Assembly (NCBI GenBank): GCA_021735655.1
Contig: JAIPGM010000004.1
Span: 64,001 to 128,000 of the forward strand
Length of the DNA stretch: 64,000 nucleotides
From: Candidatus Omnitrophota bacterium
GTDB lineage: Bacteria > Omnitrophota > Gorgyraeia > Duberdicusellales > 4484-171
Direction of reading: 5' to 3'
Positions 19,379-64,000 of this stretch are shown in pieces. How positions within the stretch are numbered: the stretch's first letter is position 1; every line of letters starts with the position of its first letter. The notes under the pieces are model-generated. The model was not told the DNA's origin. It did no database searches and saw only the letters and a program-made list of their open reading frames with translations. A program made the position numbers and the translations under genes.

Positions 19379-19421
19379 TATTTATCCTTTTTAGCCACCA
19401 GCATTTAAGGAAGGAAGACAA

Positions 19422-19495
19422 TGGCGGCGAGTGGACTTGAACCACCGACAAAACGGGTATGAGCCGTTTGCTCTACCAGCCTGAGCTACGCCGCC
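19422..19495 (-). tRNA. tRNA-Met (anticodon CAU; elongator-type G1-C72), 74 nt, no encoded CCA
   Basis: Reverse complement folds as a cloverleaf: GGCGGCGTAGCTCAGGCTGGTAGAGCAAACGGCTCATACCCGTTTTGTCGGTGGTTCAAGTCCACTCGCCGCCA. CAU could also be the tRNA-Ile2 lysidine species. Confidence 0.85.
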
Positions 19496-19530
19496 AACGG
19501 GGAAAAATTATACCACATCTTTGAAAAAAA

Positions 19531-46451: not shown

Positions 46452-48842
46452 TTACTCAATCGTATAAAGATAATCGCCTATCGCACGAGCAACCGTTTCC
46501 ATGCTTTGTGCGCTGCATTTATCAACTGTATCACCTGTTGTATGGGAATACGGGTATTCAAAATCAATCAGCAAAAAGCTTGGAATTCCGGCTTGATTAA
46601 GCGGAATGTGATCGTCTCTAATATCTTGCCCAACTCTTTTTTGAAAAACATTACCGTTGATTTCCTGTGCGATACTCCAAAAAGATTCTACTTGGTTAGG
46701 AGAATTTTTAACCGATAATCCTTCTTTCAAGATTCTTAAATCTTTATCGCACACCATATCCAATACAATCCCACCGATTGGCTTGGTATTGCTGTATATT
46801 TCGCTCAAATGCTCAGCAAAGTAAGTGGAGCCGAGCGGCTTCCAATAAGTATAATCTCCACCTTGATTTTCTTCACCTTCTTCTCCATCAAAGAAAACAA
46901 CATCAATCCCTATGCTTGGCTCCGCCTGTGCGTTGGCGAATAAACGAGCTAATTCCACAAGAACTGCCACTCCCGAAGCAGAGTCATTTGCCCCCGGCAC
47001 TGGGTGGTCGGGGTTCCTTTTGTCCTTGTCGGCAAATTTTTTGCTGTCGTAATGCGCTCCAAGTATAATCCGCCGCTCTTGGGCGGGAAACAATCGACCA
47101 ATGATATTTGTCAATCTATGAACTTTCCCGTCTTGTCCAGCCTGCTCCCAGGTCTGAATTTTTACCTCCGGCGCAAGTTCTTTCATTTCGGCCAATATAA
47201 AATTTTGGGCTTTTTCGTGTCCACCTGCGCTTAGGTAACGTGGGCCATAGCGAAGTTGCTGAGCAACGAGAGCTAGCATTTCTTCACCCTTAAGGGATGA
47301 CTTCTGATTAAAGCTATTGCGCAAAATTTGTCCGGTCAAATATTCAACTGGCGAAAAATTGTCGGTCAATACAGGATAAACCGAAAACTCAAATCGGTTC
47401 ATATCGATAATCTTATTTTGTAGGGATCGAATAATTTCATTAGGATGTTCAACTACCGAAGCTGCGCCTAGATCTATCCTTTTATCGCTATTGTGGCCAA
47501 CTAAAACGATATTCTGTGATTCGATTATCCCCGGCGAATCAACCGCAAAAAAATAACTATTCGGAAAAACCGATTGGAATGTCTTTATCTCGGACATAAT
47601 AAGCGATGGTTGTTGACGAGACAAACTCCCAATCAGGCTTGCGATAAAAAGACCCTCGTCACTAAGTTTCTCTTTCGCGATTGTAAAAAATTCTTTGGTA
47701 GTAAAGTGTGCCGGAACAGAAAAAAACGAGTAGTATACATCGCTAAAAATTAAATCGTATTTTTTATTTGAGTCTCGCAACAGGCGACGTCCATCCTCTA
47801 TATAGTTTCTCAGCCGCGGTGTGTTGGTTACCCGAAAATACTTTCTTGAAAGGTTAAACAAAGAAGGTTCTATCTCAGAAACATCTACTGTCGCCTCTGG
47901 CAACTCCGCGAGCAATGCTCTGGGGAGAGAATACGCACCACCACCGATAACAAGAGCATTTTTTACGTCGGGCGTAAAAATCTTATAAAGAGCATAGTAT
48001 TTTGCATAGCCCCCTACCAGATCGATCGGATCATCGGAATCGAGAAACATAGCCCCTGAGATGCTGCGGTCTTGCTGAAAAAACCTTGTTAGTCGCCCAT
48101 CAAAAACACTATCATAGATAGTAATTCTTTCATAAACGCCATCTTTACTGTAAACAACACCTTCATTTTCTTGGTATTCAATAAACAGCGCCATGATGAA
48201 AAAAAGCATAAACACAAATAGAACACCATACAAATATTTCTTTTTCAAACCGAGCACAAAAAGAGGGACTAGCCCGAGAAGAAACAAAACTACTCCATTA
48301 GCAATAACAATTTGATTTATTCCAAAATTAGGTATGAGCACAAATCCTGCCAACAAGCTTCCGAATATACTTCCTAAAGTTGAACAAAAGAAAACTTTTC
48401 CGGCGATCGTTCCAACGCCTTGGTTTGGAGAGTGAACGCTTTGTAATTTAATTGTATAGGGAGACAATGTGCCGAGCAATAATGCTGGTAGCAGAAATAA
48501 AAATATTGAGGACACTAAAGGTCCGGCGGAAATTGAAAAGGCCAAGCTCAAAATCGGCAAAAGAATAACGCCGACAAAATGAAACAAAAGTAGCGTAAGT
48601 CCGCTCAGAAGAATGATGCTAAAGAACCAACTCGAAGATGGATAACGATCAGCCAGCTTGCCGCCGGCATAGTATCCAAAACTTAGCGCGGCAAGGATAA
48701 CACTTATTACGCTCGATACGGTAAAAATCGTATTGCCGTAATAAGGAGACAAAATACGAACCGCAACCACTTCGATAACAAGTACCGAGGCGCCAGTGAC
48801 AAAAACTACAAAAAGCAAAAAATATTTTTTAAGAAATTCCAT
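46452..48842 (-). CDS. tri-domain fusion: polytopic membrane domain + spermidine-synthase-like fold + C-terminal M28 peptidase domain
   Basis: N-terminal ~7 TM helices. VIGGGAYSLP...DLIFSDVY is the aminopropyltransferase-like part. The C-terminus carries M28 motifs GAHYDS, GANDSASGVAVLVELAR, FFDGEEGE. Start placed at ATG 48840-48842 (MEFLKKYF...); the ORF-track TTG at 48866 would read through a tRNA-like fragment. Confidence 0.65.
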   Translation of the reverse strand: MEFLKKYFLLFVVFVTGASVLVIEVVAVRILSPYYGNTIFTVSSVISVILAALSFGYYAGGKLADRYPSSSWFFSIILLSGLTLLLFHFVGVILLPILSLAFSISAGPLVSSIFLFLLPALLLGTLSPYTIKLQSVHSPNQGVGTIAGKVFFCSTLGSIFGSLLAGFVLIPNFGINQIVIANGVVLFLLGLVPLFVLGLKKKYLYGVLFVFMLFFIMALFIEYQENEGVVYSKDGVYERITIYDSVFDGRLTRFFQQDRSISGAMFLDSDDPIDLVGGYAKYYALYKIFTPDVKNALVIGGGAYSLPRALLAELPEATVDVSEIEPSLFNLSRKYFRVTNTPRLRNYIEDGRRLLRDSNKKYDLIFSDVYYSFFSVPAHFTTKEFFTIAKEKLSDEGLFIASLIGSLSRQQPSLIMSEIKTFQSVFPNSYFFAVDSPGIIESQNIVLVGHNSDKRIDLGAASVVEHPNEIIRSLQNKIIDMNRFEFSVYPVLTDNFSPVEYLTGQILRNSFNQKSSLKGEEMLALVAQQLRYGPRYLSAGGHEKAQNFILAEMKELAPEVKIQTWEQAGQDGKVHRLTNIIGRLFPAQERRIILGAHYDSKKFADKDKRNPDHPVPGANDSASGVAVLVELARLFANAQAEPSIGIDVVFFDGEEGEENQGGDYTYWKPLGSTYFAEHLSEIYSNTKPIGGIVLDMVCDKDLRILKEGLSVKNSPNQVESFWSIAQEINGNVFQKRVGQDIRDDHIPLNQAGIPSFLLIDFEYPYSHTTGDTVDKCSAQSMETVARAIGDYLYTIE

Positions 48843-48861
48843 CGAAACGAAGTATAGCGAG

Positions 48862-48890
48862 GTCAATGGGATTCGACCCCACGATCACCT
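48862..48890 (-). other. degenerate tRNA 3'-end-like fragment (T-arm + acceptor 3' strand), candidate att site of the adjacent mobile element
   Basis: Minus-strand read CGTGGGGTCGAATCCCATTGACCTCG resembles the GGTTCGAATCC T-loop region with one T missing. No 5' acceptor or D arm, so it is not a functional tRNA. Confidence 0.35.
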
Positions 48891-49449
48891 GCGTGATAGG
48901 CAATAGCCCCTAAATAAAAACTCCTCTATTTTTAATGTCAACTACGTTTTAATTATAACATGTTGGTCAAATAGTGTCTATGCCCGGTTTAGATCTATAT
49001 GGCCTAGGCTGGATTTGTGTCAATTAAGATAAAAAAATAAATTATCGATTTTTGATTGTTCATAAAATAAAATTTATTTTGCTATCGCTAATATTATACT
49101 TCTTCCCGAAACTAAAGCAAACTTTATTAATCTTCACCCTTCTAATATCGAAATTAAAATATAAATTGCTTTAGTCTCTGTGAGCATGTTTTCGGGGATT
49201 TGATAGATAATGAAGACGGGCCGAATGTGACACTACTCAAACTACACAAGCCCAATCAATACAACTACTTGTGAAACTTTATAAAAAGCGTTCTATGGGC
49301 ACTTTGATGTCCCTCGGCCAACCCATTAATAATTCAGCACCTTATCGAAAAGGTGTTTTATCACAACACCGGCAAAAAACCATGAAAATGGTCACTCAAA
49401 ACTAAAATTCTCGATCCCTATACAAGCGCTAATCTTGGCGAGTGAAAAT

Positions 49450-50307
49450 CTACCTTTTACCGATAACCCGCCTATACCTACCACGTTTTGGGTTTATCAT
49501 AAGCTGACGAAAAGCCTCAGCTCGCTGATTTTCCCTCCACTTTTGTTCTTCAGCTTGTTGTTTCTCTTTTTCTCGTTGCTCATCCATGTGAGATAGAATA
49601 TCTTGAGCTAAAAGCAAACGTGAATTATTTAAGGCACATTCTACAAAGTCTTTTCGACTAAGGCTGGCAACTACAGCCCATCCGCCCATATCTCCCGGAA
49701 AAAGACACCAAAGAAAAGATCGCCTTTCATCTGCCTGATCGACAGGGGGAATACCTTGAAAATCAAAATAAACTGGTACTGAGCTTTCAAGCCACCTTTT
49801 AGGAAAACATTCTTCTGGGAAATAGGTAAAATATATGCCTTTCCAAATTGAAGATCCAAAGTCTTTATGCCCTGACCCGGCATGGAAATCATTAGACCCT
49901 TTACAAAAACGTCGGTAGTCCATCGACAATCGTGTACCGTTAACAAGCCACACCATATTTTTATAAAAATTTTCACGACTCTTTATCTCATCAGAGTCGA
50001 TTGCCGAATGCTGAAATTCTATTACAAGCCCACTGATCGTTTTTACATCTGCAATATGTTTTTCTTCATTCATAGAATCAAAGTGCCCAAGCTCCTGCCA
50101 TTCTTTCGGAAAATGTTTCTTCCATTCTCTGTGCCACTCCGCTTCATTCTCCCACCATGGATCACACAACGATTTTCGCTTATGCTTCCAATGCCAAACT
50201 TTTTCTGCCCCACAATAAGCGATCATATCGCTTTGGCAATGCACACACGAACCTCGTAACCCCGGCTGAGCTTCCGTCTTATCTCCGCCAACCAGAGCAA
50301 ATCTCAT
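49450..50307 (-). CDS. competence protein CoiA-like family nuclease-related protein
   Basis: N-terminus MRFALVGGDK...CVHCQSDMIAYCGAEKVWHWKH matches the CoiA N-terminal zinc-ribbon-like region. Confidence 0.55.
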   Translation of the reverse strand: MRFALVGGDKTEAQPGLRGSCVHCQSDMIAYCGAEKVWHWKHKRKSLCDPWWENEAEWHREWKKHFPKEWQELGHFDSMNEEKHIADVKTISGLVIEFQHSAIDSDEIKSRENFYKNMVWLVNGTRLSMDYRRFCKGSNDFHAGSGHKDFGSSIWKGIYFTYFPEECFPKRWLESSVPVYFDFQGIPPVDQADERRSFLWCLFPGDMGGWAVVASLSRKDFVECALNNSRLLLAQDILSHMDEQREKEKQQAEEQKWRENQRAEAFRQLMINPKRGRYRRVIGKR

Positions 50308-50552
50308 ATTTTATTCCTTTTTTTTTCGGTGTTATTAGTGCAAGCCCATACTAAAGCGACAATCCACGCAATTCCCCCAGTAAAAACCATAAACAGGTTT
50401 AAGATAAATATGGCTAAAGCATTATTATGCTTCCTCTTTCTAGCAACAACAGTCGGCAAGAAATAAAAACCGATGGCAACGATACCGCCAATAATTCCCA
50501 AAACAATCCATGCTACAGGGGCTTGATCCCACCAAGCAATAAAATCGCCCAT
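50304..50552 (-). CDS. superinfection immunity (Imm-like) small membrane protein
   Basis: YFLPTVVARKRKHNNALAIFILNLFMVFTGGIAWIVALVWA matches the pfam14373 pattern. Confidence 0.6.
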   Translation of the reverse strand: MGDFIAWWDQAPVAWIVLGIIGGIVAIGFYFLPTVVARKRKHNNALAIFILNLFMVFTGGIAWIVALVWACTNNTEKKRNKI

Positions 50553-50583
50553 TCATTACTCCTAGAGAAAATCTCTTAAACTT

Positions 50584-50829
50584 TTACTTTTGTTCCTCAT
50601 TTTCAAGAACATAACCTTGACCATAATCTATTATCTCTACCCATTGTTTACCTTTGTTTATGTTTAAATCCCAGACTCTGCCGGTTATGGTGTCACATTT
50701 CATCCACATCATTCCACCCAACTGACCACTTCCTTGATAAGTTGTGACTTGATATCTACCATTCAGTGCAAACAAAAAGGCTGATACTGCCAAAGAAATA
50801 CACAGAATCATTATTCCAAAATTCTTCAT
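50584..50829 (-). CDS. small secreted hypothetical protein
   Basis: Signal peptide, 81 aa. Confidence 0.4.
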   Translation of the reverse strand: MKNFGIMILCISLAVSAFLFALNGRYQVTTYQGSGQLGGMMWMKCDTITGRVWDLNINKGKQWVEIIDYGQGYVLENEEQK

Positions 50830-50870
50830 ATATCCTCCTGAGTCATTTAAACACTACCGTTTTGTAATCT

Positions 50871-51266
50871 CTATTCTTCCTCATTTACAAAAATCGCCGT
50901 TCCTTTAACAACCTTGGCATTTACAGGCGCAACCCATATTGCACCACTCCCATAACCACCGGCCATAGTAGATGTCTGAGTTCCCGTATTTGTTAATAAC
51001 ACACCGTTTGCGCCGATTTTTGCCGCTTGTTTTTTAAGCTCCGCAACTGCATAATCTTGTGAGTCTTGATCCGTCCATCCCGAATCACTTGATGCTTCAA
51101 CAACCCCAAGCACATCATATTTCTTTGGTTCCTCTAAATAAAGCTTTACTGATTGTGGATCCGTAGATGGCCGGGCAGTTCCAGTAAGGATAACACTACC
51201 CGTTGCACAGCCTATGAGAAACGAAGCTACTAGGCAACAAACAATAATTTTGGAATATTGTTTCAT
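50871..51266 (-). CDS. lipoprotein, hypothetical
   Basis: Lipobox LIGC after signal peptide. Confidence 0.45.
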   Translation of the reverse strand: MKQYSKIIVCCLVASFLIGCATGSVILTGTARPSTDPQSVKLYLEEPKKYDVLGVVEASSDSGWTDQDSQDYAVAELKKQAAKIGANGVLLTNTGTQTSTMAGGYGSGAIWVAPVNAKVVKGTAIFVNEEE

Positions 51267-52027
51267 CTTTTTGCCCCCTCTATTTTTTCTTTATCAGAAA
51301 ATATGGAAATAACAGAAGCTTTGTTGTTGTCACCGCCAAACCATATCCAAAACACATTGTCATCTGAAGTCATCATCGCACCGGTATATTTAGAGAACAT
51401 ATTTTTAGGGTTTGCTTCCTTAAAAGCATCCAAAAATTCGGGATAAAAAATCTCATCAAATTTTACCAAAAATTCATCTCTATTTTTAATTTCGCCGAGA
51501 TCTGTGTTTAATGGGTAATAAACCATGTTGGAGACTTTTTCTTTGTCTCGATTTAGGACTGATCTTTTGAAATCTTGGGCAAAATTATCCACCATTTCAT
51601 CATCGTCCATTCCGCCAATAGCATACATGGAATTCAAATCGCCTGCACTGCCATAATCCATTTTAAGCCTTATATGCCCAGTTGCTTCCGCAGAACTTAT
51701 GTCTCCCGCAATAACTTCACGATTCAGCTTGGAATCTCCATAAGCGTCATCTTGATCTTGAAAAGACGCATTGATCACTATGCCATCCTCATTTTTTAAA
51801 GTAATTTTTCTGCCATCAAGAGTTCCGGAAAGCGGAATGCTCATATAATCCGAATCAAAATATAACTCACCAATTACATTCTCCTGATCATATACAAGAG
51901 TTAATCCACCAGTTTGACCTGCAATGTCGCCCCTGTATGTCCAGTGCCAATCTTTGGTGAATGAATCACAATGCCCCTCTGCGCCAGTGAACAACAGACA
52001 AAAAACAAATATAAGCAATGCCCGCAT
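51263..52027 (-). CDS. secreted hypothetical protein
   Basis: Signal peptide; 254 aa; 4-nt overlap with downstream gene. Confidence 0.4.
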   Translation of the reverse strand: MRALLIFVFCLLFTGAEGHCDSFTKDWHWTYRGDIAGQTGGLTLVYDQENVIGELYFDSDYMSIPLSGTLDGRKITLKNEDGIVINASFQDQDDAYGDSKLNREVIAGDISSAEATGHIRLKMDYGSAGDLNSMYAIGGMDDDEMVDNFAQDFKRSVLNRDKEKVSNMVYYPLNTDLGEIKNRDEFLVKFDEIFYPEFLDAFKEANPKNMFSKYTGAMMTSDDNVFWIWFGGDNNKASVISIFSDKEKIEGAKR

Positions 52028-52029
52028 TC

Positions 52030-53340
52030 CTAGACCTCTTTTTCCTTTAAGAAATCAAGTACGGGCTTGAATTTCTTTATTGTACTGATGATTTCGCCCT
52101 CTAACTCTACTGATTCTGTAAGCACCTTAGTTCCTCTGTCAATAGAATACCTAAAGTGTATACCGGGAGCCCCCGGCTCTTTATCCGCTTTTTTCAAAAC
52201 ATCACAAATATATTGAACGTCTTTTTGCGTATTAATATCACTCAACTTCATTTCAAAGAATTTAACCCATTTTTCATTGCCGGGCATTATGCGTTTCCCT
52301 GTTCTCGGCAAACGTTTTGAAACTACCAGCCTCGATTCCTTTCTGGCACCGCTTATAACCTGAAGGAATTTATTTGTATTTGTAGATATCCGATTAAAAA
52401 ATATGCCGATAGGGGTCTTACTCTGAGATGTCCGACCGTTGCGGACAACAGTGTTGATATCCAAACAACTCTTTGAAACCTCAATAGTAAAATTACATTG
52501 GTTAAAAACGTCCTTGCCATCCTTTGGTCTTTTAATTGCGACCCAAGCAAACCTCTCATCCTTGCCACTTCTCGATATGTTCCCGGGCTTAATAAATGAA
52601 TATTCAGAACCGATTTCTTTCGGCAGTTTTTCTTTTATGATATTTGCCAGAGCTTTAAGTTTTTTCCTGAGAATAGGGACGTAATACGGATTGGGGTCAA
52701 TCCAAAAATCAAAATCCGAGTCTTTGAATCCATTAAATTCGGTCATTACGACTACCTCCATGTAATCAATAAACTGCTCAATTAATTGTGCAACCGCAGA
52801 TAGCGATTTATTTCCTTTTATTTTCTCAACTGTGCGACGGCATATTTTATGAACCTTCGACCAGCTAAGGTATCTAACACGGTTATCGCTAATGCTATTT
52901 AAACTGCTTTTGTCATCTAAATTGTTCGTTATAACAACAAGGACATCTTTAGCACCTATATCGCTCAAATGCCGTCTAATTTGATCAAGATCCAATCTTG
53001 CCCGAACTTTCGATTCAATATGGATATTGTAATCTGCCAAATCGATCAAAGCATCAGGTCTGCTACCGCTTAATCCTTTCTGCAGTTTAAAAGAAACCAC
53101 CGGGCGATTTGGTGCCTCGATTGCTTTTAAGAATCCAGACAAAAGGTCGACAAAACCTGCCTGACAGCAAAATTCGAATATATTGACCAGCCCTTTGGTA
53201 GTGTTATCCTCAACTTGGAAATCATACAAGGATTCTTTATCTCGCTTAGAAGGCCCCCGGTAATAAAAAAATATGTTCTGATGAGGATCTCTCACGCTTT
53301 TCTCCCATATTCGGTCTTTAAAAATTTGCCATAAGCCCAC
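52030..53340 (-). CDS. PD-(D/E)XK nuclease-fold protein with unknown C-terminal domain (candidate defence effector)
   Basis: RPDALIDLADYNIHIESK is a PD...D...ExK arrangement near the N-terminal third; 436 aa. Confidence 0.45.
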   Translation of the reverse strand: MGLWQIFKDRIWEKSVRDPHQNIFFYYRGPSKRDKESLYDFQVEDNTTKGLVNIFEFCCQAGFVDLLSGFLKAIEAPNRPVVSFKLQKGLSGSRPDALIDLADYNIHIESKVRARLDLDQIRRHLSDIGAKDVLVVITNNLDDKSSLNSISDNRVRYLSWSKVHKICRRTVEKIKGNKSLSAVAQLIEQFIDYMEVVVMTEFNGFKDSDFDFWIDPNPYYVPILRKKLKALANIIKEKLPKEIGSEYSFIKPGNISRSGKDERFAWVAIKRPKDGKDVFNQCNFTIEVSKSCLDINTVVRNGRTSQSKTPIGIFFNRISTNTNKFLQVISGARKESRLVVSKRLPRTGKRIMPGNEKWVKFFEMKLSDINTQKDVQYICDVLKKADKEPGAPGIHFRYSIDRGTKVLTESVELEGEIISTIKKFKPVLDFLKEKEV

Positions 53341-53885
53341 AGGGCTTCATCAAGCCGCTTCCATGCAACCCCTTTTTTGCATAGCTCATTAAAAAATGGG
53401 GCATACTCCGCAAAATATATTTGTTCTTTTTGCTTGTTGCTATTTGGAATTTCATTGCGTCGGTTTTGACTCAAAAAGATAAAAGCCCTATAAACATGCT
53501 GATCAAATATCGGGAAATCATTCGGCGTGATTATGTGTAAAAGATATATTTTCCAGATAGCTCCGTTTACAAAACTGAAATCTTTTAAGAAAGAATCGAG
53601 GGAAAAAAAGTCCTTAAGGTTATTGATGACATTCAGCTTGGCTTTAATATTCGATAGCACTACTTCTTTTTTCTGGGATAGTTTACTCCCATTTTTCCAA
53701 ATAAATAATTTATCAATATCATCGATGCTGAATTTTTTCTTTCCGATAATAGGGACGTAATAATCTTCCATAGGATAGTTATAAAAACTGCTCCAGAATT
53801 TAACAAACTCATCTATTGTGACATTTTTTGTGTTTAAAACCGGGAAATTCATTATTGCTCCGTTAAATTTTCCCCACTTGGACAA
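53292..53885 (-). CDS. hypothetical protein, probably co-transcribed with the PD-(D/E)XK gene
   Basis: 197-aa ORF overlapping the downstream gene by 49 nt; no recognised motif. Confidence 0.35.
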   Translation of the reverse strand: MSKWGKFNGAIMNFPVLNTKNVTIDEFVKFWSSFYNYPMEDYYVPIIGKKKFSIDDIDKLFIWKNGSKLSQKKEVVLSNIKAKLNVINNLKDFFSLDSFLKDFSFVNGAIWKIYLLHIITPNDFPIFDQHVYRAFIFLSQNRRNEIPNSNKQKEQIYFAEYAPFFNELCKKGVAWKRLDEALWAYGKFLKTEYGRKA

Positions 53886-53932
53886 TAGGCTTCATCAGAA
53901 AAAACATTGTGCAAAATGTTATGATTTTACTT

Positions 53933-54430
53933 TTACTCATTCTTCTCCTTTTTTCCGTTCTTTATTACCTTTTCTAATGCGTGGATAACTTTATCGACTT
54001 GAATGTTTATATCACGCTTTATTAGATGCTCCCATAAACGGACCACAATCCACCCTTTTCTTTTTAAAAATAGAGTGGTTTTTTTGTCTCGCAATCGATT
54101 CTTTTCTATTTTTGTTTTCCAAAAATCATTCTTTAATAAATGCTTCCAGCGAGAATACTGCCAACCATGCCAAAAATCGCTATCTAAGAAAACACACAGT
54201 TTAGCTCTTTTAAAAACGATATCTGGCTTCCCTTTTATAAGTTGCACATTTCTCTCAAATGTTTTCCTTGTTCGTTTTTTTAATGCGCGAATGAAATCTT
54301 CCTCAAATTTTGTGTCTCGAGACCGTATTTTTGACATTACAACAGAACGGTGTTCTTTTGTGATTTTGTCTGATTCTCGTTTTTTCTTAAAATTGCGACC
54401 TAAATAGTTTTTGATTCTTCTCTTTGTCAT
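53933..54430 (-). CDS. vsr: very-short-patch-repair endonuclease (Vsr)
   Basis: TKEHRSVVMSKIRSRDTKFE...GKPDIVF...VFLDSDFWHGW...NDFWKTKIEKNRLRD...GWIVVRLWEH matches the Vsr signature throughout. Confidence 0.85.
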   Translation of the reverse strand: MTKRRIKNYLGRNFKKKRESDKITKEHRSVVMSKIRSRDTKFEEDFIRALKKRTRKTFERNVQLIKGKPDIVFKRAKLCVFLDSDFWHGWQYSRWKHLLKNDFWKTKIEKNRLRDKKTTLFLKRKGWIVVRLWEHLIKRDINIQVDKVIHALEKVIKNGKKEKNE

Positions 54431-54433
54431 AGC

Positions 54434-55609
54434 CTAATAAGACAATCCATATTTCTTCATTGCTTCTTTTAGTAATGGCGGTGATTTCCGTTCACCAAAA
54501 GCGTCCCCTAAAAGATGTACTATAAATTTCTCAGTTTTAGGTAAAATAACACTTGAATGCTGAACGACTAAACTCACCCATTTATCAACCAGTTCTTTTG
54601 TTCTTATATATTCCTTTAATTCCCAATAGTGCCTGACCTCGTCAACCGTGAGTTTTGAAACAATTTCAATAATTTCTTTAGCGTTTCTTTGGAGGTAATA
54701 AAATATCTTTGGAATCTTATGGTACGCCACGTCATTAATAACAATTGTCTGTTGTCCTCCAGCGGTAAATCTATCTCTAAGCGAAGAATCCACCACACCA
54801 TGACGAGCCGCTAACCAAGTCGCGAAATTTTGATATTTTGTTTGACTCCTACCAAATATCTCAGGGAATCTTGCCATAGCTTCATTTCTAAAGCGATTCT
54901 GTTTATCTTCATGAAGATTGCCCCACAAAGTAACTGTGGGACTTAGCATGGCGTCAACTTCATCCCCGGGATCCATCCACCAAGGTTCTTCTCCTTTTTT
55001 AGAAATTTTGCGAAAATAACGAACAACTTCCTTAATCGGATTATCTTGTTTCCGCAAAATGTTATATTCCGTTCCCATCTTATCAAATATGGTTTTCCCA
55101 GAATCAAGCTCCATATCTATCAAATATCTCGGGGAATGGGTTACAGCGATGTCGTAAAGACATTCTTCATATCTTCGAAACTTAAACTTTGGTGGAGCGA
55201 CCAGTCTTCCAAAAAATAGATATATTCTTTCAACGCCTTCAACTCTTGTTGTTTCAAGGACACTATTGCCAGTACTACGCCAATGATCTTGTTTGGTAAT
55301 TTTTACTTCCACTCCGTAATATCGTTTCGCCACTATATCTGGAAATTTATGCCCTGATATAAGTTGTATCGTTCCTTCAAATTCAGTTTTTTTCGATGAA
55401 ATCAACATAGAACCGTAGACTTCTTTTTCAAAATCTGATGAAGATAATCCGCAATAGCGCTTTGGAGCTTTTGACGCTTCATCTTGAATGGTTTTAATCC
55501 CACCGTTCAATAAAGTCTCAAAAGAATTCTCACTCGCTTCTGTCCTTTTAGATATAATCATTTTAATCCTTTCTTGAAAATCTTTGGCCATAGCTCCTGT
55601 AGACGCCAC
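54434..55609 (-). CDS. putative type II restriction endonuclease (inferred from position between C5-MTase and Vsr)
   Basis: No motif recognised. The M-R-Vsr gene order is known from HpaII-type systems. 52-nt overlap with the MTase suggests a later start. Confidence 0.35.
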   Translation of the reverse strand: MASTGAMAKDFQERIKMIISKRTEASENSFETLLNGGIKTIQDEASKAPKRYCGLSSSDFEKEVYGSMLISSKKTEFEGTIQLISGHKFPDIVAKRYYGVEVKITKQDHWRSTGNSVLETTRVEGVERIYLFFGRLVAPPKFKFRRYEECLYDIAVTHSPRYLIDMELDSGKTIFDKMGTEYNILRKQDNPIKEVVRYFRKISKKGEEPWWMDPGDEVDAMLSPTVTLWGNLHEDKQNRFRNEAMARFPEIFGRSQTKYQNFATWLAARHGVVDSSLRDRFTAGGQQTIVINDVAYHKIPKIFYYLQRNAKEIIEIVSKLTVDEVRHYWELKEYIRTKELVDKWVSLVVQHSSVILPKTEKFIVHLLGDAFGERKSPPLLKEAMKKYGLSY

Positions 55610-56847
55610 GCCACATTAAAAGCTAATAATGGTGGCACAGCGTTGCCAATCACTCTGTAACCATCTGATGGGCTCAAAGCAAACTCCGATCCTAAAACCG
55701 AAGCGCTTCTCGTAAAAGCGAAATCATCGGGAAAGGTTTGAATTCTGGCGCATTCTCGAACTGTCAACCGTCGCTCTTTTAGCCCCATATCAATTTCTTT
55801 AAGATTTTTTCCGCCATGCTCTTTCGACAAACGTCTAAATTCTATATTCCCATGATGTTCAGCTCGAATCGTTGGCCCTAATCCCATCACATTAACTTCA
55901 CTTTGTCCTTGGCAATGTTTTCCATACCACTTAGCTCTTGAATAAGCTTTTTGAGAGGGGTCATTCGAGAATTCCGGTTCTTTCAGTCCAACAAAAGCGT
56001 CTTTAACTTTTACAAAGGGCAATAAGTGTGAATCTTCACTAATTTCACCATGCGTTCTTGGGGGATATGGGTTAAAGCACGAATCATCACTCAATAAGGT
56101 TAATTGTTCAATAGCTTTTCTAGTCAGAGCATCCCTTCTAAAACCGATAAAAACTACCCTCTCTCTAGTCTGGGGGGCACCATAATCCTGCGCTCTTAAT
56201 ACTTTAGCGTTAACAACCAAATAACCATTATCTCCAATAGATCCAAAATCATTTTCGATAATCTTCTTAGCGTCGGATAAAGATACTAGCCCCTTGACAT
56301 TTTCGGCAAGAAATACTTTTGGCCGGACAATTTCAATAACAGCTCTCATCCACATGTAAAGCTTCCCCCGATTTTCTTCTGATGGTTCCTTGCCGTTTAA
56401 CAATCCTCCATGATGTGCCTTGTGAGAATTAAAACCTTTGCGTTTTCCCGCCACGCTAAAATCTTGACACGGGAAACCACCAGTAACCAAATCAACTCTC
56501 GGAAAGACTCTCGCCGCTCCTGAAGAATGCTTCCTAACTAAATCAACAATACTTTCAGAATGAAAAAGCGATCCATTTTTTCCTTCTTTATCAAAATAAG
56601 GAACCCAACCAGCTTTAGCCGATTGTAAAATATCATTGGCAAAAACTGTTTTAAACACTGTTTTTGGCAATCGAACCCAATGCTTATTTATAGGATTTTT
56701 TAACCAATCTGGATGAATTATTGGATTAATGGATTTTTTAAGAACGATGAAATCACCTTCAAAACCTAAATCCATACCACCGCAACCAGAGAACAATGAA
56801 AGTACTTTCAACGTTTGTGTCTTTTTTTTCATTTTTAGTCCTATCAA
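55558..56847 (-). CDS. DNA (cytosine-5)-methyltransferase
   Basis: Motif I LSLFSGCGGMDLGF, motif IV GGFPCQDFSVAG, motif VI FLAENVKGL, plus variable region and C-terminal motifs. Confidence 0.9.
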   Translation of the reverse strand: MIGLKMKKKTQTLKVLSLFSGCGGMDLGFEGDFIVLKKSINPIIHPDWLKNPINKHWVRLPKTVFKTVFANDILQSAKAGWVPYFDKEGKNGSLFHSESIVDLVRKHSSGAARVFPRVDLVTGGFPCQDFSVAGKRKGFNSHKAHHGGLLNGKEPSEENRGKLYMWMRAVIEIVRPKVFLAENVKGLVSLSDAKKIIENDFGSIGDNGYLVVNAKVLRAQDYGAPQTRERVVFIGFRRDALTRKAIEQLTLLSDDSCFNPYPPRTHGEISEDSHLLPFVKVKDAFVGLKEPEFSNDPSQKAYSRAKWYGKHCQGQSEVNVMGLGPTIRAEHHGNIEFRRLSKEHGGKNLKEIDMGLKERRLTVRECARIQTFPDDFAFTRSASVLGSEFALSPSDGYRVIGNAVPPLLAFNVAWRLQELWPKIFKKGLK

Positions 56848-57566
56848 TTTTCCATAAACCCTTCATCAGCAAAGCTGAAGAAAGAATTATCACCAATTAT
56901 TACATGATCCAAAAAGTCAATTTTTATAGACTTGCTCACATTTAGAATATCCTTTGTTAAATTTCGATCGTCAATACTTGGATCACAATTCCCAGAAGGA
57001 TGATTGTGAGCGCAAATAAATGAACTAGAGCAACACTCTAGAGCCTTATGAAATATTTCCCTAACAATAGGATTAACTTCATCGACTGTTCCTTTTCCAA
57101 GCTCAACGATATTTATCAATCGACTCTTGGTGTCAAGATAAAGAACCTTAAATTCTTCTTTCTTTAAATCACGCATGCGAGGCGATAATAAGGTAAACAC
57201 ATCTTTGGCATTTTCAATCCTAATTTTTTTGGGAATGATTTTCCCTTCATGGAATCTTTTGCCAATTTCTATCGATGCTCGTATTTGAGCTATCTTAGCG
57301 ACACCAAGACCTTTAAACTCTTTCCAATCCAAATCCCCAGCCTGACTTAATTCCCGGAAAGAACCAAACTTTTTAATTACAGAACGAGCTAAATCCAAAG
57401 CGCTCTGTCCTCGTATCCCAATACGAAGAATAATTGCTAATAATTCGGCATCGCTTAAAGATTCTTCTCCTTTTTTTAAAAGCTTCTCTCTCGGTCGGTC
57501 ATCCACCGGCCAAGCGCTTATTCCTGATGGTTTTCTAGTCTTTGTTTTTCCCAATTTTATACCCAA
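56844..57566 (-). CDS. RadC-like JAB/MPN domain protein
   Basis: RPREKLLKKGEESLSDAELLAIILRIG, HNHPSG, DPSIDDRNLTKDI...IDFLDHVII. Start codon uncertain (TTG/GTG; no early ATG). Confidence 0.85.
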   Translation of the reverse strand: MGIKLGKTKTRKPSGISAWPVDDRPREKLLKKGEESLSDAELLAIILRIGIRGQSALDLARSVIKKFGSFRELSQAGDLDWKEFKGLGVAKIAQIRASIEIGKRFHEGKIIPKKIRIENAKDVFTLLSPRMRDLKKEEFKVLYLDTKSRLINIVELGKGTVDEVNPIVREIFHKALECCSSSFICAHNHPSGNCDPSIDDRNLTKDILNVSKSIKIDFLDHVIIGDNSFFSFADEGFMEN

Positions 57567-57602
57567 TTTAATCCCTCGTTTAATCCCTCATTTAATCCCT
57601 CA
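57567..57602. repeat. 3 tandem 12-bp direct repeats TTTAATCCCTCN immediately upstream of radC
   Basis: tttaatccctcg / tttaatccctca / tttaatccctca. Confidence 0.7.
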
Positions 57603-57619
57603 CGCACGCCAAATCATAC

Positions 57620-57820
57620 CTATTCCAGTACATCCCAATGTCCGCTTTTTCTCGAGCCAATACGCTTCAAAAAACCTTCTTCCTTTAGCTTGGCAATGGC
57701 ATTTTCCACTGTTCGCTGTGATAGCTGTATCTGATCCGCAATTTCATACGTTTTTATAAAAGAATCTGCCTCAATGGCGTTTAAAACTTTCTCCGCGTTT
57801 ATTCCGCACTTCTTCCGCAT
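57620..57820 (-). CDS. small winged-helix DNA-binding regulator
   Basis: 66 aa; IADQIQLSQRTVENAIAKLKEEGFLKR is an HTH plus wing. Confidence 0.6.
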   Translation of the reverse strand: MRKKCGINAEKVLNAIEADSFIKTYEIADQIQLSQRTVENAIAKLKEEGFLKRIGSRKSGHWDVLE

Positions 57821-57845
57821 TTCTTCCGCATTTTCTACCGCAATT
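57791..57845. repeat. 5 tandem about 11-bp repeats (minus-strand TGCGGAAGAAa) straddling the start codon of the wHTH gene
   Basis: Minus-strand read tgcggtagaaaa tgcggaagaaa tgcggaagaag tgcggaataaa cgcggagaaa. The ATG at 57818-57820 lies in the 3rd unit. Confidence 0.7.
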
Positions 57846-57856
57846 ACACTCTCATT

Positions 57857-58957
57857 TTAAACTATCCTTTTCTTGCTTCTTTTTTTTGAAGGTTTTTTAC
57901 TGATTTGCGATTCCACCAAAAAACGCTCACGTTTTAACTCTTTGACAAGCTCGTCTTCCGTTGGCAAATATAACTTATACCTCGAGGCAAATATCTGTTT
58001 GTTATCTTTAGGCAACGTGTACCTGACAACAGCGTCTTTTTTATCTTCGCACAAAATAAGTCCAACTGTTGGATTGTCATCTTTCTGTTTCATGGATCGG
58101 TCGTAATAGTTTACATACATCTGCATTTGTCCGATATCCTGATGAACTAGTTTCCCAATTTTTAAATCGATAAGGACAAAGCATTTCAAGATAGTATTGT
58201 AAAAAACCAGATCAACATAAAAATGATCGCCATCCAATGTAATGCGTTTCTGTCTGCCTACAAATGTAAATCCTTTTCCAAGCTCAAGCAAAAACCTGGA
58301 AAGGTTATCAATAAGCGCCTGTTCCAGCTTGCTCTCGTATAATTTTGAGTGAGGAGATAATCCGGTAAATTCTAAAACATAAGGATCTTTTATCATATCT
58401 TCATATGTTGCCAGCTCTTGTCCTTTGCGAGCCAGCCTCATAAGACCTTTTTTGTCTTTGCTTAAAGCAAGCCGCTCATAAAGAAGTGTTCCTTTTTGTC
58501 GTTCAAGTTCGCGAGCTGACCAATTATTAGCGACGCACTCCGCCTCATAAAAGGATCTTGCATCAGGCTTGTCGACTCGCATCAATATTCGATAATGCGT
58601 CCAGCTCAATTCTTGACGCACTGCGTCAAGAATTGGATATGCTAAATAAAACTTTCGCATATTCGTCAAATTCGTAAAATCAAAGCCCTTGCCAAATTCA
58701 TCTGAAAGTCGATGGGACAAATCTTCTATTGTTTTCTTTCCATATCCTGCGCGCTTCTTGCCTTTCTGTTCTTCTTCGACAATTTCTTTTCCGATATGCC
58801 AATAGGCTAAAACCATCTCCGTATTAACAGCGCGGGCGATATTGTTTCTTGCGTTCTCAATAATTGCGCAGATTCGTTCGTACGCATTTGTTTTATTATT
58901 AACTCTCTTTTTGGCGATACTTCGAGAGCTTTTTTGAATGGCTTTTTTTCGTGGCAT
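57857..58957 (-). CDS. YhcG/DUF1016-family PD-(D/E)XK nuclease
   Basis: C-terminal FVGRQKRITLDGDHFYVDLVFYNTILKCFVLIDLKIGKLVHQDIGQMQMYVNYY is the DUF1016 core. Confidence 0.75.
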   Translation of the reverse strand: MPRKKAIQKSSRSIAKKRVNNKTNAYERICAIIENARNNIARAVNTEMVLAYWHIGKEIVEEEQKGKKRAGYGKKTIEDLSHRLSDEFGKGFDFTNLTNMRKFYLAYPILDAVRQELSWTHYRILMRVDKPDARSFYEAECVANNWSARELERQKGTLLYERLALSKDKKGLMRLARKGQELATYEDMIKDPYVLEFTGLSPHSKLYESKLEQALIDNLSRFLLELGKGFTFVGRQKRITLDGDHFYVDLVFYNTILKCFVLIDLKIGKLVHQDIGQMQMYVNYYDRSMKQKDDNPTVGLILCEDKKDAVVRYTLPKDNKQIFASRYKLYLPTEDELVKELKRERFLVESQISKKPSKKRSKKRIV

Positions 58958-58958
58958 C

Positions 58959-59135
58959 TTAGCAATTCCTCCTGCTCTTAATAAATTCTTCTAAATCTTC
59001 CGGCTTGATCTTCCACTGACCGATCTTCACGGCTTTAATTTCTTTTTTGCGTATTAAGTCTCGAATCCATTCATCGGTAAGTCCGAGTTTTTCGGCTACT
59101 TCAGGTACAGTGAGATACTCTTTTATGTTTTCCAT
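58959..59135 (-). CDS. small Xis/AlpA-like excisionase-family HTH protein (58 aa), absent from the ORF track
   Basis: ATG at 59133-59135, TAA at 58959-58961. MENIKEYLTVPEVAEKLGLTDEWIRDLIRKKEIKAVKIGQWKIKPEDLEEFIKSRRNC is similar to the HTH_17 protein at 43328-43567. Confidence 0.6.
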   Translation of the reverse strand: MENIKEYLTVPEVAEKLGLTDEWIRDLIRKKEIKAVKIGQWKIKPEDLEEFIKSRRNC

Positions 59136-59516
59136 AATTTTACACCTCGTGGAGTTATTGACTATGTATTACCATATTCAAAACAGCATTAGTCCCTATT
59201 TTAGTACTATTAAACCCAATGGTCAAGCAAAATGCTCATAAACACTGCAATTACGATAATGCCGGATTATGCCCCGGATTTATAATCCCGCACCTCTGAT
59301 ATATCATTTCCCACGGCTAAAGACTCAAAATAATCGACTTTTGCGGAAATCTAATCAATTTCGGCGTATCTTGAAGCTGAAATGACCCAAAATAACTCCT
59401 TATTATCATTTAAGCCAGTAAATGATAATATGGCATTTTCTTATTATCACTTCCTTATAAGATTTGTGATGAAAATGGGCTCCGGATCAATTATCCTCAC
59501 ATCCGTTGTAACAGCC

Positions 59517-59564
59517 AAAACACGACAACACGACATTTTTCATGTCGTATAATGTCGTGTTTTT
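59517..59564. promoter_or_regulatory. palindromic operator-like element with four ACACGACA/TGTCGT half-sites and an embedded TATAAT
   Basis: aaacacgacaacacgacatttttcatgtcgTATAATgtcgtgtttt, inside a 490-bp non-coding stretch. Confidence 0.5.
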
Positions 59565-59625
59565 CAGGCTATTTTCGCCTTAAAAATTAGCTCTAAATAT
59601 CCATAACACACATAAATACAAGCAT

Positions 59626-59880
59626 TTACGCAATATTAGGCTTTTTGCCATCACCAGACAATAGGACATGACATCGATTTTTTATTTTAAGGTCACTGAC
59701 AGACTGCCCCTCGCCCGACCCTCGGCAAACCCCCATGGTAAGGACCCATCTTTTTATGGCTTCCGGAGTTATATTCAGCTTAAGCTTCACCTCATACCCA
59801 TCAGGTGATTTTATCGTCACATAGGTCCAGAAGCCCGGCTTCCATTTCTTCTTTTTACGCTTATATCTGTACCATCCCAT
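59626..59880 (-). CDS. hypothetical protein
   Basis: 84-aa ORF; Lys-rich N-terminus. Confidence 0.35.
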   Translation of the reverse strand: MGWYRYKRKKKKWKPGFWTYVTIKSPDGYEVKLKLNITPEAIKRWVLTMGVCRGSGEGQSVSDLKIKNRCHVLLSGDGKKPNIA

Positions 59881-60024
59881 AGATCACGTCCTTTTAAAAT
59901 GCGTGCGGAGAAGGGCGTCAAGGAGGTTTACCAAAACAACGCCCCTTATCAGTCGCATTTAACTGATAAAACCTCTGCGATGGAACAGTTAAGCATCGCA
60001 TACAGTTTCCCCGCATTATTTGTT

Positions 60025-60699
60025 TTAATCAATAACCGCTTCCTTTTTTTCCACAGGTTGAGGTCGATATCTTTTCATGATCTGGCGAATTTCTTTCTCA
60101 AGATCAAAGTTTGAAACCCAGTTGCTTTTACTTCTGATTTCTTCCTCAACATCAGCCACAGTAGGACGGTTTAACCCAGCGATAACCCTGTCTTTTTCAG
60201 CATGAAATACATCATACGCCTCAGTGCCTAAGCTCGGGCTAAATGCCGGATATGATTCCAGATCACGCTTTGTCACCGCAGGGTGTCCATGTAAAGCAAA
60301 AGCCAATCCAAAAAGTTTTCCTTTTGCTTTCCAGAGATCAAGTTTTGCCTTATCACGGTCACGATTAAGGCGTTTTCTGATCTCTATAACTTTCTGAGAT
60401 TCATCATCTTTCAAAGTGGTGAAAGCATCCTCAAGTTTTTCTTTTAGCTTCTCAAGGCTTTCGGACACCACGTCGAGATTGATATTGCATTCCTCCAAAG
60501 CTGAATCCGCTTCTTTTACAGCATTTGGATTAGCTTTTTCACCGCACATAATCCTGCTTCTGATTTCTTTTGCTTTTTCTTTAGCGTCTTGTTTTTCTTT
60601 TTCACATTGCTTCTGCTTCTCCTCAAGAGCTACGATCTGCTCGGCGATCTCATCTGGCGTGCTTTTGTCTTTTAACACATTTAAAAAATTAAGCTTCAT
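60025..60699 (-). CDS. hypothetical coiled-coil protein
   Basis: 224-aa ORF; charged heptad-like N-terminal half. Confidence 0.4.
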   Translation of the reverse strand: MKLNFLNVLKDKSTPDEIAEQIVALEEKQKQCEKEKQDAKEKAKEIRSRIMCGEKANPNAVKEADSALEECNINLDVVSESLEKLKEKLEDAFTTLKDDESQKVIEIRKRLNRDRDKAKLDLWKAKGKLFGLAFALHGHPAVTKRDLESYPAFSPSLGTEAYDVFHAEKDRVIAGLNRPTVADVEEEIRSKSNWVSNFDLEKEIRQIMKRYRPQPVEKKEAVID

Positions 60700-60703
60700 T
60701 GTC

Positions 60704-61117
60704 TTATCTCCTTTTTTTAGGTGCGGTTATTGATAATGCTTCTTCAAACGGACAATCCGTTTCGTTCTGATACTTTCGAGCACGCCAAACATGATCAAGC
60801 TGTTCTGCGATTACCACACTGCCTGAATCTGCTTCTTTTTCCGGTGCGGTCTTACTTAAAGCGTCAGTTAACGTGCATTCAAATTTCTCACGGTACTCAT
60901 ACGCTTTCTTTAAGTGGTCAAGACGGACATCGCCTTCACTCGCCATGCTATCGTTCTTCTTAGCAGTCGCCTGCAAGGCTTCTGTGAGTGAACAGTTGTG
61001 CCTCATCATATAAAGATTAGCGTCAATTAAATGAACGAGTTGTTTTTCTTCAGTTGACCCCGGAACATACCGGCTGTTCATCCCGCTTATTGTGTTTAAT
61101 AAATGAGCTTGTTTCAT
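60704..61117 (-). CDS. hypothetical protein
   Basis: 137 aa; GGAGG SD 8 nt upstream; 4-nt spacer to the downstream gene. Confidence 0.4.
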   Translation of the reverse strand: MKQAHLLNTISGMNSRYVPGSTEEKQLVHLIDANLYMMRHNCSLTEALQATAKKNDSMASEGDVRLDHLKKAYEYREKFECTLTDALSKTAPEKEADSGSVVIAEQLDHVWRARKYQNETDCPFEEALSITAPKKRR

Positions 61118-61210
61118 TTTTTATTCCTCCTGTTTTTTTGTTTATCCACACTAAAAATATCCTTAATTTTCAATCCATAATTACATCATTTTCACCCCCT
61201 TTTCTGATGA

Positions 61211-61510
61211 TCGTGAGCGTTGTGAACGTCGATTCCACTACTTTCTAAATCCCTCTTTACGCCTCTTTTACACCCCTTTTTTGTGACTTTCCTGACCCTT
61301 TCCCTTATATTTTTCTTTTTTTAGAACAGAGGGGTTTTTACGTTCACAATGTTCACAAACCACACAAATCCTTGTAGATTAAGAAGTTAACCACTGAGCG
61401 TAGGTGTGACCGTAGACTCTGGACGTTCACAACGTTCACACTTTTCAGTACGGTCTCGGGTCCTCACGGTCACAACGCTCACCGACGTTCACACCGACGC
61501 TCACACCATT
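61211..61510. repeat. iteron field: about 11 copies of CG(T/C)TCACA(A) in direct and inverted orientation (P4 type-I-iteron-like), putative replication origin
   Basis: Copies: gtgagcgttgtgaacgtc (61215-61232); cgttcacaatgttcacaa (61341-61358); gacgttcacaacgttcacac (61423-61442); cggtcacaacgctcaccgacgttcacaccgacgctcacac (61467-61506). Confidence 0.65.
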
Positions 61511-63808: not shown

Positions 63809-63810
63809 TG

Positions 63811-63972
63811 TTATGCTCCGTTCTGAAATATGAAGTCTTTAACCTTCCTGTAACATTGAAATAACTGCTCCTCTTTGGAGTTATTGAAAAACTTATCCGC
63901 CAGCTTGCGTGTTTTCTCGGCATCATCGAAAAGGATTCGTTTCTGCCTGCCAACTCCCGATAAACCCTTCAT
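63811..63972 (-). CDS. possible small ORF (53 aa) translationally coupled to the primase
   Basis: ATG at 63970-63972. MKGLSGVGRQKRILFDDAEKTRKLADKFFNNSKEEQLFQCYRKVKDFIFQNGA. TAA ends 2 nt before the primase ATG. Confidence 0.3.
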   Translation of the reverse strand: MKGLSGVGRQKRILFDDAEKTRKLADKFFNNSKEEQLFQCYRKVKDFIFQNGA

Positions 63973-64000
63973 GTCGCACCCCTTTGATACGAGGTACGTG

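Follow-up and report, generated by a model that had tools for sequence, protein, structure and literature searches.

How is the boundary of an integrated element to be placed when a fragment of a transfer RNA (tRNA) gene and the first genes of the element lie some 580 bp apart? The question is raised by a 64,000-nucleotide stretch of the genome of Candidatus Omnitrophota bacterium (contig JAIPGM010000004.1, positions 64,001 to 128,000; hereafter the window). On its minus strand a tRNA-like remnant (48855-48903) stands beside the last chromosomal gene, and beyond a gap an island of genes runs to the right edge. A preliminary description took the remnant for one of the two direct repeats (attR/attL) left by a tyrosine integrase acting on a tRNA gene, and placed the intact tRNA and the integrase beyond that edge. 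We think it probable that the junction is instead composite, comprising an element inserted by a serine recombinase at the tip of a tRNA-Asp gene, a recombinase gene split by that insertion, and a tRNA remnant that is most likely the scar of an older event.

The window was extended rightwards through its 787-aa primase-polymerase (61445-63808), which is also encoded on the Logan contig L001 (SRR12088349). The two sequences overlap by 2894 bp with 0 mismatches, and L001 adds 2574 bp on which a DUF5659 gene, a repeat array of ~800 bp, a recombinase gene and the 3' end of a tRNA gene follow one another. The extreme end of L001 reads GTGGGTTCGAATCCCATCGACCCCGCCA, a T arm and acceptor end equivalent to 66547-66574; the tRNA thus lies ~2.55 kb past the right window edge and adjoins the recombinase, whose body is equivalent to 64933-66573 (plus strand) and whose open reading frame (ORF), unbroken over 547 codons in L001, enters the tRNA antisense. 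The protein has an N-terminal catalytic domain, Resolvase, with its serine nucleophile (PF00239, 1.3e-30, residues 11-165, with the motif VIYTRCSTDDQ), a Recombinase domain (PF07508, 5e-16) and a zinc ribbon (Zn_ribbon_recom PF13408, 2e-11), and it matches PHROG 95, integrase (1e-108). Judged by these domains, the integrase is a large serine recombinase. Among the 16 ORFs of at least 81 aa scanned from 49.4 kb to the window end (57.6-57.9 and 59.0-60.0 kb aside), and the two L001 genes past it (recombinase and DUF5659), none had a Pfam Phage_integrase domain. The predicted tRNA with a matching 3' end and the predicted integrase are therefore both present, on L001; the expectation of a tyrosine enzyme fails. 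An NCBI protein encoded on the same contig as the window (P0241, MCF7908180.1) ends in QLWRGRWDSNPRSPA and a stop; its C-terminus reads on as DSNPRSPA and stop, in which the RSPA-stop codons correspond to (G)TCACGCAGGTGATCG, the anticodon loop and stem of tRNA-Asp, and this fits an Asp anticodon loop.

Un-integrated relatives and the continuity of the recombinase reading frame place the left end of the element (attR) within the gap that had been taken for non-coding, at a distance of 315 bp from the remnant. In the sense of the tRNA, attL reads GAC CCCG CCA TAG and attR reads GGC CCCG TCT TCA, and the common core is CCCG only; in attR it occupies 49217-49220 (CGGG on the plus strand). The crossover would fall within this core, at about tRNA positions 70-73. 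The element spans 49217 to the equivalent of ~66553, or ~17.3 kb, and the earlier view of 49.4-64 kb as an integrated element is upheld, with its start moved to 49.2 kb.

Two contigs represent un-integrated forms. The first, L065 (an IMG/VR contig), is collinear with window positions 60184-66552 at 85% nucleotide identity and enters, ~25 nt past the core, a block homologous to window 49245-49382; the second, L075, is arranged as L065 and has RadC, a 224-aa gene, the primase and the recombinase in common with the window. Taken over both contigs, the homologous block corresponds to window 49245-49393. Neither has, before that block, anything like 48855-49216. In both, the recombinase ORF passes through the core into a tail, which in L065 reads QQWR LSGNYRRKSQLQE IQLLVKLYKKRSMGALISLGKPI and completes an ORF of 600 aa. 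The plus strand of the window from 49214 reads RR AECDTTQTTQAQS IQLLVKLYKKRSMGTLMSLGQPI, ending in QN and a stop. This tail is 62% identical to that of L065 over 50 aa, and the distance from WR to an LL(V/I)K motif is 13 aa in 4/4 independent sequences. In the window the frame is open only at 49214-49405, following the in-frame stops TAA TGA at 49208-49213. When L001, as far as CAA CTA TGG CGG, is joined to GCC GAA at 49220, the frame is kept and a 601-aa protein results. We read 49220-49405 (plus strand; AECDTTQTTQAQSIQLLVKLYKKRSMGTLMSLGQPINNSAPYRKGVLSQHRQKTMKMVTQN, 61 codons and TAA) as the detached 3' end of the recombinase gene, which in its integrated state ends in codons running antisense through the tRNA (WRGRWDSNPRSPA and a stop), for a predicted protein of roughly 553 aa.

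A profile built from six tails retrieved 46 proteins of 35-118 aa, mostly unnamed, one of them from Candidatus Omnitrophus magneticus. In these ORFs variable, unrelated N-termini are joined at (W)R to a conserved tail (VVVDGRRTLQPLEIPLLIKIYRKRSMGWLIALDEPI), as expected of ORFs that cross an attR junction. WR is kept in 22 of the 46, presumably because the target encoded CCA. In nine, as in the window, R follows a residue other than W, and 15 start inside the conserved part. That part begins at the R codon (CGG) in 31/31 attR-type ORFs and never later, which places the crossover within CCG. Five tail peptides had no Pfam match, and an AlphaFold2 model of the tail (44 sequences; pLDDT 61, pTM 0.26) was too poor for a fold search.

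The recombinase has 208 homologues at E <= 1e-30, and contigs were read for several of them; in each, the recombinase gene and a tRNA gene overlap at their 3' ends. The target is tRNA-Ser(GGA) in L060 (recombinase 98% identity), L074 (99%), L063 and L070 (both ~67%); tRNA-Asp(GTC) in L062 (84%); tRNA-Ser(CGA) in L067 (66%); tRNA-Arg(TCT) in L068 (67%); tRNA-Ser(GCT) in L071 (61%); and tRNA-Glu(TTC) in L072 (70%). At least six tRNA species thus adjoin recombinases of 61-99% identity, and near-identical elements occupy tRNA-Asp (the window element) and tRNA-Ser(GGA). Acceptor stems vary with the tRNA, and the common sequence starts only after CG, at CCAT(T/A)GTTGAC; the junction is constantly at CCG, the end of the acceptor stem and the discriminator base. 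Codons antisense to a T loop form the C-terminal end in 56/120 homologues. With a crossover at the extreme 3' end of the tRNA, a 45-nt duplication cannot arise. When each target tRNA was compared by BLASTN with the locus it came from, no repeat of the 3' end was found, the far ends of the relatives lying mostly off the contigs.

The arrangement of motifs around the core is consistent with such an enzyme. With each half-site written toward the core, the tRNA (B) arms present GGGTTCG of the T loop 13 nt from the core, and the putative host-side half-site of attR in the window (B', 49196-49216) presents GGATTTG at 14 nt. Both element arms of L065 and L075, and the P' arm of the window element, carry a GGGTTCG-like motif at 18 nt, where the P arm of the window element (49220-49244) has a degenerate TAGTTTG. 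The reconstructed attP (~53 bp) would read CATTCGGCCCGCCATAGTTGAC and attB (~44 bp) CGACCCCGTCTTCATTATC; the predicted junctions are GTCACATTCGGCCCGCCATAGTTGACAACC in the circular attP and CCCATCGACCCCGTCTTCATTATCTATC in the empty attB, and the intact tRNA-Asp(GTC) is predicted to end in CGACCCCG, with CCATAGTTGAC of the element following. A 22-mer of P' found nothing in a scan of the viral collection. The short core, the lack of a long duplication and attP half-sites longer than those of attB would all suit a serine integrase. A 5-bp offset between element and host half-sites is predicted by the structural model for these enzymes, in which, as Rutherford et al. reportedly proposed in 2013, attP is longer and attB shorter. 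Distinct placement of domains on P and B half-sites belongs to the general serine-integrase model (PMC5499577). The zinc-ribbon domain may read T-loop DNA, which would explain why several tRNA species serve as targets.

We propose that a 17.3-kb plasmid-like element encodes the large serine recombinase that placed it at the 3' tip of tRNA-Asp. The attachment site of the free element would lie inside the recombinase frame, and integration would sever the last 61 codons and leave them 17 kb off; excision would rejoin the gene in frame, to ~601 aa. The enzyme would read GGTTCG, offered by the host arm as the tRNA T loop 13 nt from the core and by the element arms at 18 nt, and this would explain how near-identical elements come to lie in tRNA-Asp and tRNA-Ser. 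A more general form of the proposal is tentative, and we would sooner doubt it than rely on it: that the T loop (GGTTCG) and acceptor-end CCG make up the host half-site of a whole serine-integrase family, which occurs in Omnitrophota and other uncultured bacteria, and that the exchange of tails acts as a switch between integration and excision. If true, a C-terminal tail of 45-60 aa would be swapped for tRNA-antisense codons, and the free and integrated elements would make different isoforms.

What, then, is the remnant? The minus strand does carry a 3' half resembling a T arm and acceptor, including the string CGTGGGGTCGAATCCCATTGACCTCG quoted in the preliminary description. The remnant reads TTGCCTATCACGCAGGTGATCGTGGGGTCGAATCCCATTGACCTCGCTA from 48903 down to 48855, and its end lies 12 nt upstream of the ATG (48842) that starts a 796-aa gene on the same strand. 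It is laid out as an anticodon arm, a 5-nt variable loop (TGATC) and a T arm (GTGGG-GTCGAAT-CCCAT), followed by the 3' acceptor strand TGACCTC, then G, then CTA. Its anticodon is ATC where tRNA-Asp has GTC (loop CTATCAC vs CTGTCAC, G34 to A), and position T54 is G. ARAGORN found no gene at the remnant, its sole tRNA call in the window being tRNA-Met (19421-19496), which sequence comparison agrees is not the target. Against the Rfam tRNA model the remnant scores 14.3 bits (gathering score 29), the 3' half aligning well and the 5' half being degenerate; when the putative 5' leader was folded as RNA (z = -1.9), the T arm did not form. The remnant is a fragment, lacking a full cloverleaf, and no functional tRNA gene.

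Its identity as a decayed 3' half of tRNA-Asp follows from comparison with L001, to whose 28-nt tRNA 3' end it is equal at 24/28 bases (4 mismatches). It is the sole site within 9 mismatches of that end on either strand of the 64 kb, and shuffled sequences gave zero matches, so the resemblance is far from chance. Read antisense, it gives RSPA and a stop, identical to the C-terminus of P0241, and with the tRNA-Asp of L062 it has CAGGTGATCG.GGG.TCGAATCCC in common. Scans of the viral collection with a 20-mer and of metagenomes with a 26-mer of the remnant found no other copy.

A crossover at CCG cannot yield such a fragment, and the remnant is therefore not an attachment-site repeat of the present element, whose boundary is 315 bp away. 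Most likely it is the scar of an older integration into the same tRNA. A native tRNA-Asp would once have stood directly upstream of the 796-aa gene; an older element, with its crossover near the anticodon loop, would have brought in a 3' half of its own, so that the native half was displaced. That element would since have decayed to ~300 bp while the displaced half mutated, and the serine-recombinase element would later have entered the rebuilt tRNA, spacer and remnant both pre-dating it. We count in favour of this scenario that in other genomes homologues of the 796-aa gene commonly have a tRNA directly upstream.

The spacer at 48913-49216 (304 bp) has 28% GC and lies outside the block common to the un-integrated relatives; it would be the DNA downstream of tRNA-Asp before integration (the B' side). 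From 49217 to 49449 GC is ~40%, as in the remaining window, and the description of the 580-bp gap as AT-rich thus applies to its first part only. That it is non-coding likewise stands in one respect, since 48867-49449 holds no ORF of at least 60 aa, and falls in another, since 49214-49405 (plus strand) is open and homologous to the recombinase tail. Rfam gave only sub-threshold chance matches in the gap (ES239, MIR161).

The remnant might also be a tRNA pseudogene, arisen by local duplication or by deletion of the 5' part of a second tRNA-Asp, with no mobile element involved. The spacer has no BLASTN homologue in any of the fetched loci and shows no recognised trace of an older element, and the frequent tRNA upstream of homologues of the 796-aa gene suits this explanation as well. 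A fragment from near the anticodon stem to the 3' end is, as Williams is said to have reported in 2002, the usual footprint of integration into tRNA genes, and integration at this site, a hot spot, has been demonstrated. These two arguments against a pseudogene are not decisive; on balance we hold such an origin to be unlikely.

Several observations weigh against the composite reading. In the NCBI annotation the recombinase is represented by its C-terminal 300 aa alone ('zinc ribbon domain-containing protein'), and a frameshift or an annotation artefact may be responsible, the gene perhaps being damaged in that metagenome assembly. The assignment to tRNA-Asp is based on 28 nt of DNA and four inferred codons. 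The P arm of the element is degenerate (TAGTTTG vs GGGTTCG), and the peptide it encodes, AECDTTQTT, is unlike the VVVDGRRTL of the family. In the tail the differences between window and L065 by codon position (17, 11, 18) show no third-position excess. No empty site or circular form of exactly this element was found, and for L065 a search for the far end of its contig gave no sign of circularity. The one other attR that was read, in L076, is without a tRNA remnant. Finally, attL and attR also have TT in common at +7/+8; with the crossover at that point attP would contain TGA (49211-49213), which would end the ORF ahead of the tail.

This last point leads to a second alternative, in which the junction is the same, the crossover took place just after CCA at TT (AA on the plus strand, 49209-49210), and the tail is a DNA site or a small gene. 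The shared TT, the absence of third-position bias and of Pfam matches, and the poor structural model of the tail all suit such a reading. We nevertheless consider it improbable: the ORF is continuous across the core in L065 and L075, attP would be without the CCGCCAT(T/A)GTTGAC that L065, L069 and L075 have in common, and of the 31 attR ORFs in relatives nine have a residue other than W and then, precisely from R (CGG) onward, the conserved part.

There is little room left for the remnant as attR repeat of the present island, made by a (tyrosine) tRNA integrase, with the 580-bp gap consisting wholly of element DNA. The remnant does match the tRNA 3' half at the other end of the island, and its orientation and position suit the classical geometry. 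However, the sole integrase found among the ORFs scanned is a serine recombinase, the enzyme of the relatives always joins at CCG without duplication, and the homologous block of L065 and L075 begins ~25 nt from the core with no DNA like 48855-49216 before it; the repeat is, moreover, imperfect, despite an intact recombinase gene in L001, and no direct repeat marks both boundaries, given 4/28 mismatches and an element end at 49217-49220. Least credible of all is that the remnant is a tRNA-mimicking P arm of the element, which would then reach 48855: one protein would bind host and element arms alike, GGGGTCG lies 13 nt from TCG in the remnant and its 3' flank CTATACTT resembles CCATAGTT, but a 13-nt spacing is of the host type (the element type being 18 nt), the central bases would differ (CT vs CC), no other remnant copy came from the collection scans, and the in-frame junction and the homology boundary with un-integrated relatives fall at 49217-49245, on which grounds we rejected the idea.

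The integrated element body extends on the minus strand from 49450 to 64000 and continues ~2.55 kb past the window, collinear with L065, L075, L060 and L062. Its cargo, by Pfam and PHROGs, comprises a CoiA-like nuclease, a superinfection-immunity-like membrane protein, Vsr, a C5 methylase, RadC and a YhcG nuclease, together with the NrS-1-type primase-polymerase/helicase, which includes the NrS-1 HBD domain. Phage-like genes had been described here; no family of capsid, tail or terminase was matched by 16 proteins against Pfam or 10 against PHROGs (a scan of part of the island ORFs, several of which are without any match), and the PHROGs matches among these 10 were to integrase and primase only. 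The cargo is plasmid-like, and the element is, on its gene content, best described as integrative and plasmid-like, with no virion genes found. Its modules are mosaic: the replication genes of L065 are 89-99% identical in amino acid sequence and its recombinase 76%, and in L060 the reverse holds. A scan of the viral collection for relatives of the CoiA-like protein gave nothing, and exact-match look-ups of the 285-aa and 82-aa proteins of the island and of P0241 were likewise without result. A terminator-like hairpin and T run follows the CoiA-like gene (49352-49370, minus strand, by pattern match), overlapping the tail segment on the opposite strand.

Between the recombinase and the DUF5659/primase-polymerase genes, L001 1700-2520 (equivalent to 64055-64875) contains degenerate direct repeats, at least 12 in number and each 50-70 nt long, and three inverted copies, with the core GACACTTT-N12-15-GTATGTACG. 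Tandem Repeats Finder misses this degenerate array; a general repeat search detects it. It is probably an iteron-type replication origin. Elsewhere in the element, a Vsr mismatch endonuclease gene (53933-54430), an unassigned 391-aa ORF (54434-55609) and a C5 cytosine methylase gene (55558-56847) form a probable restriction-modification module, the 391-aa ORF possibly encoding the restriction enzyme; L065 has a Vsr homologue (40% identity) among different cargo.

Within the spacer, a site matching the sigma-70 consensus at 11/12 positions with an extended -10 (TAGACA-17-TG.TATAAT, 48952-48980, minus strand) is a putative promoter; read from 48980 to 48952 it points at the remnant and the 796-aa gene. 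The 9-mer TAGTTGACA at 48936-48944 (minus strand), ~35 nt upstream of the remnant, is identical to the 9 nt that follow CCA in the P' arm. A relationship was rejected, since the similarity does not extend and no tRNA lies to the left of the 9-mer; it may be due to chance or to a TTGACA -35-like box.

The flanking chromosomal gene (46452-48842, minus strand, as are all long ORFs of the window) encodes the 796-aa membrane protein, in which Pfam recognises a spermidine-synthase-like region and an M28 peptidase. Among 45 loci with homologues (L002-L046), 13 have a tRNA gene on the same strand 6-220 nt upstream, of a species that varies by locus (Leu, Phe, Ser, Ala, Pro, Gly, Ile). The closest homologues reach 68% identity and are mostly from Patescibacteria, the present genome being labelled Omnitrophota. 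This suggests that the gene is horizontally mobile and tends to adjoin tRNA genes. Farther into the chromosomal side, 19531-46250 is a polysaccharide-synthesis cluster with several GT4 glycosyltransferases, a Wzy-like ligase, a Wzz/tyrosine-kinase-like protein, an ABC exporter and a sulfotransferase, and GC rises to 43-45% at 31-35 kb.

Two loci of relatives deserve separate mention. In L076 an orphan tail (10001-10285) with an attR-like junction (TGGCGG and P arm) is separated from an unoccupied tRNA-Ser(GGA) (10923-11010) by 640 nt that hold no more than an EamA gene and a 46-aa ORF; a site-specific deletion of an element may have left it behind. In L072, 8100-8200 holds a second copy of the first 13 nt of tRNA-Glu with its 5' flank (CGGTTGATACA.AATTCTGTCCCCATCGTCT), upstream of the targeted tRNA, which may be the footprint of another element using the 5' side of the tRNA.

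Comparative support for the proposed insertion comes from dozens of independent junctions at six tRNA species, from integrated and free forms, and from a geometry that fits the model. To an enzyme that reads the T loop nearly every genome might offer landing sites, which could interest genome engineering, and the split recombinase gene could, speculatively, be a self-contained directionality device. For annotation, the nearest tRNA fragment should not set the boundary of an island, and a small 'hypothetical' ORF at such a junction can prove to be the severed tail of an integrase.

Serine integrases are known for targets in protein genes and are textbook avoiders of tRNA genes. A survey nevertheless placed 14/297 of them at transfer or transfer-messenger RNA genes, targets for which they were previously not known, and called for experimental proof of these previously unreported cases (PMC7192596); the elements of streptococci that carry serine integrases insert into protein-coding genes. 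A non-exhaustive search of the literature yielded no description of the present family. No recombination directionality factor was identified in the window element.

As in islands formed by tyrosine integrases at tRNA genes, the tRNA and integrase stand at one end, the function of the tRNA is preserved and a 3' fragment lies downstream. The window element differs in its serine enzyme, in crossing over at the discriminator and not within the anticodon loop or T loop, and in making no repeat, the fragment being 315 bp outside the junction. As a putative replicon it resembles the NrS-1-type integrative plasmids with iterons, its 787-aa primase-polymerase/helicase (HBD) standing beside degenerate repeats of 50-70 nt, but a phage structural module was not found in the window element. 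The recombinase itself is closest in plan to those of phiC31, Bxb1 and A118 (LI Int), with Resolvase, Recombinase and zinc ribbon domains, a short core and no long target duplication, and, as with phiC31-type enzymes, element half-sites are ~5 bp longer than host half-sites. Enzymes of the phiC31, Bxb1 and A118 type have a coiled-coil region in the zinc-ribbon part. Unlike them, the window element targets the 3' tips of several tRNA species and has its attP inside the recombinase ORF.

This last trait recalls the tyrosine integrases of SSV1-type archaeal viruses, in which attP lies inside the int gene and integration partitions that gene. The likeness would be one of mechanism only: in both, integration at a tRNA target splits the recombinase gene and excision would restore it. 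Unlike the SSV1-type gene, which is divided into two large parts, the bacterial serine enzyme loses only a tail of 61 aa and keeps its catalytic and DNA-binding domains.

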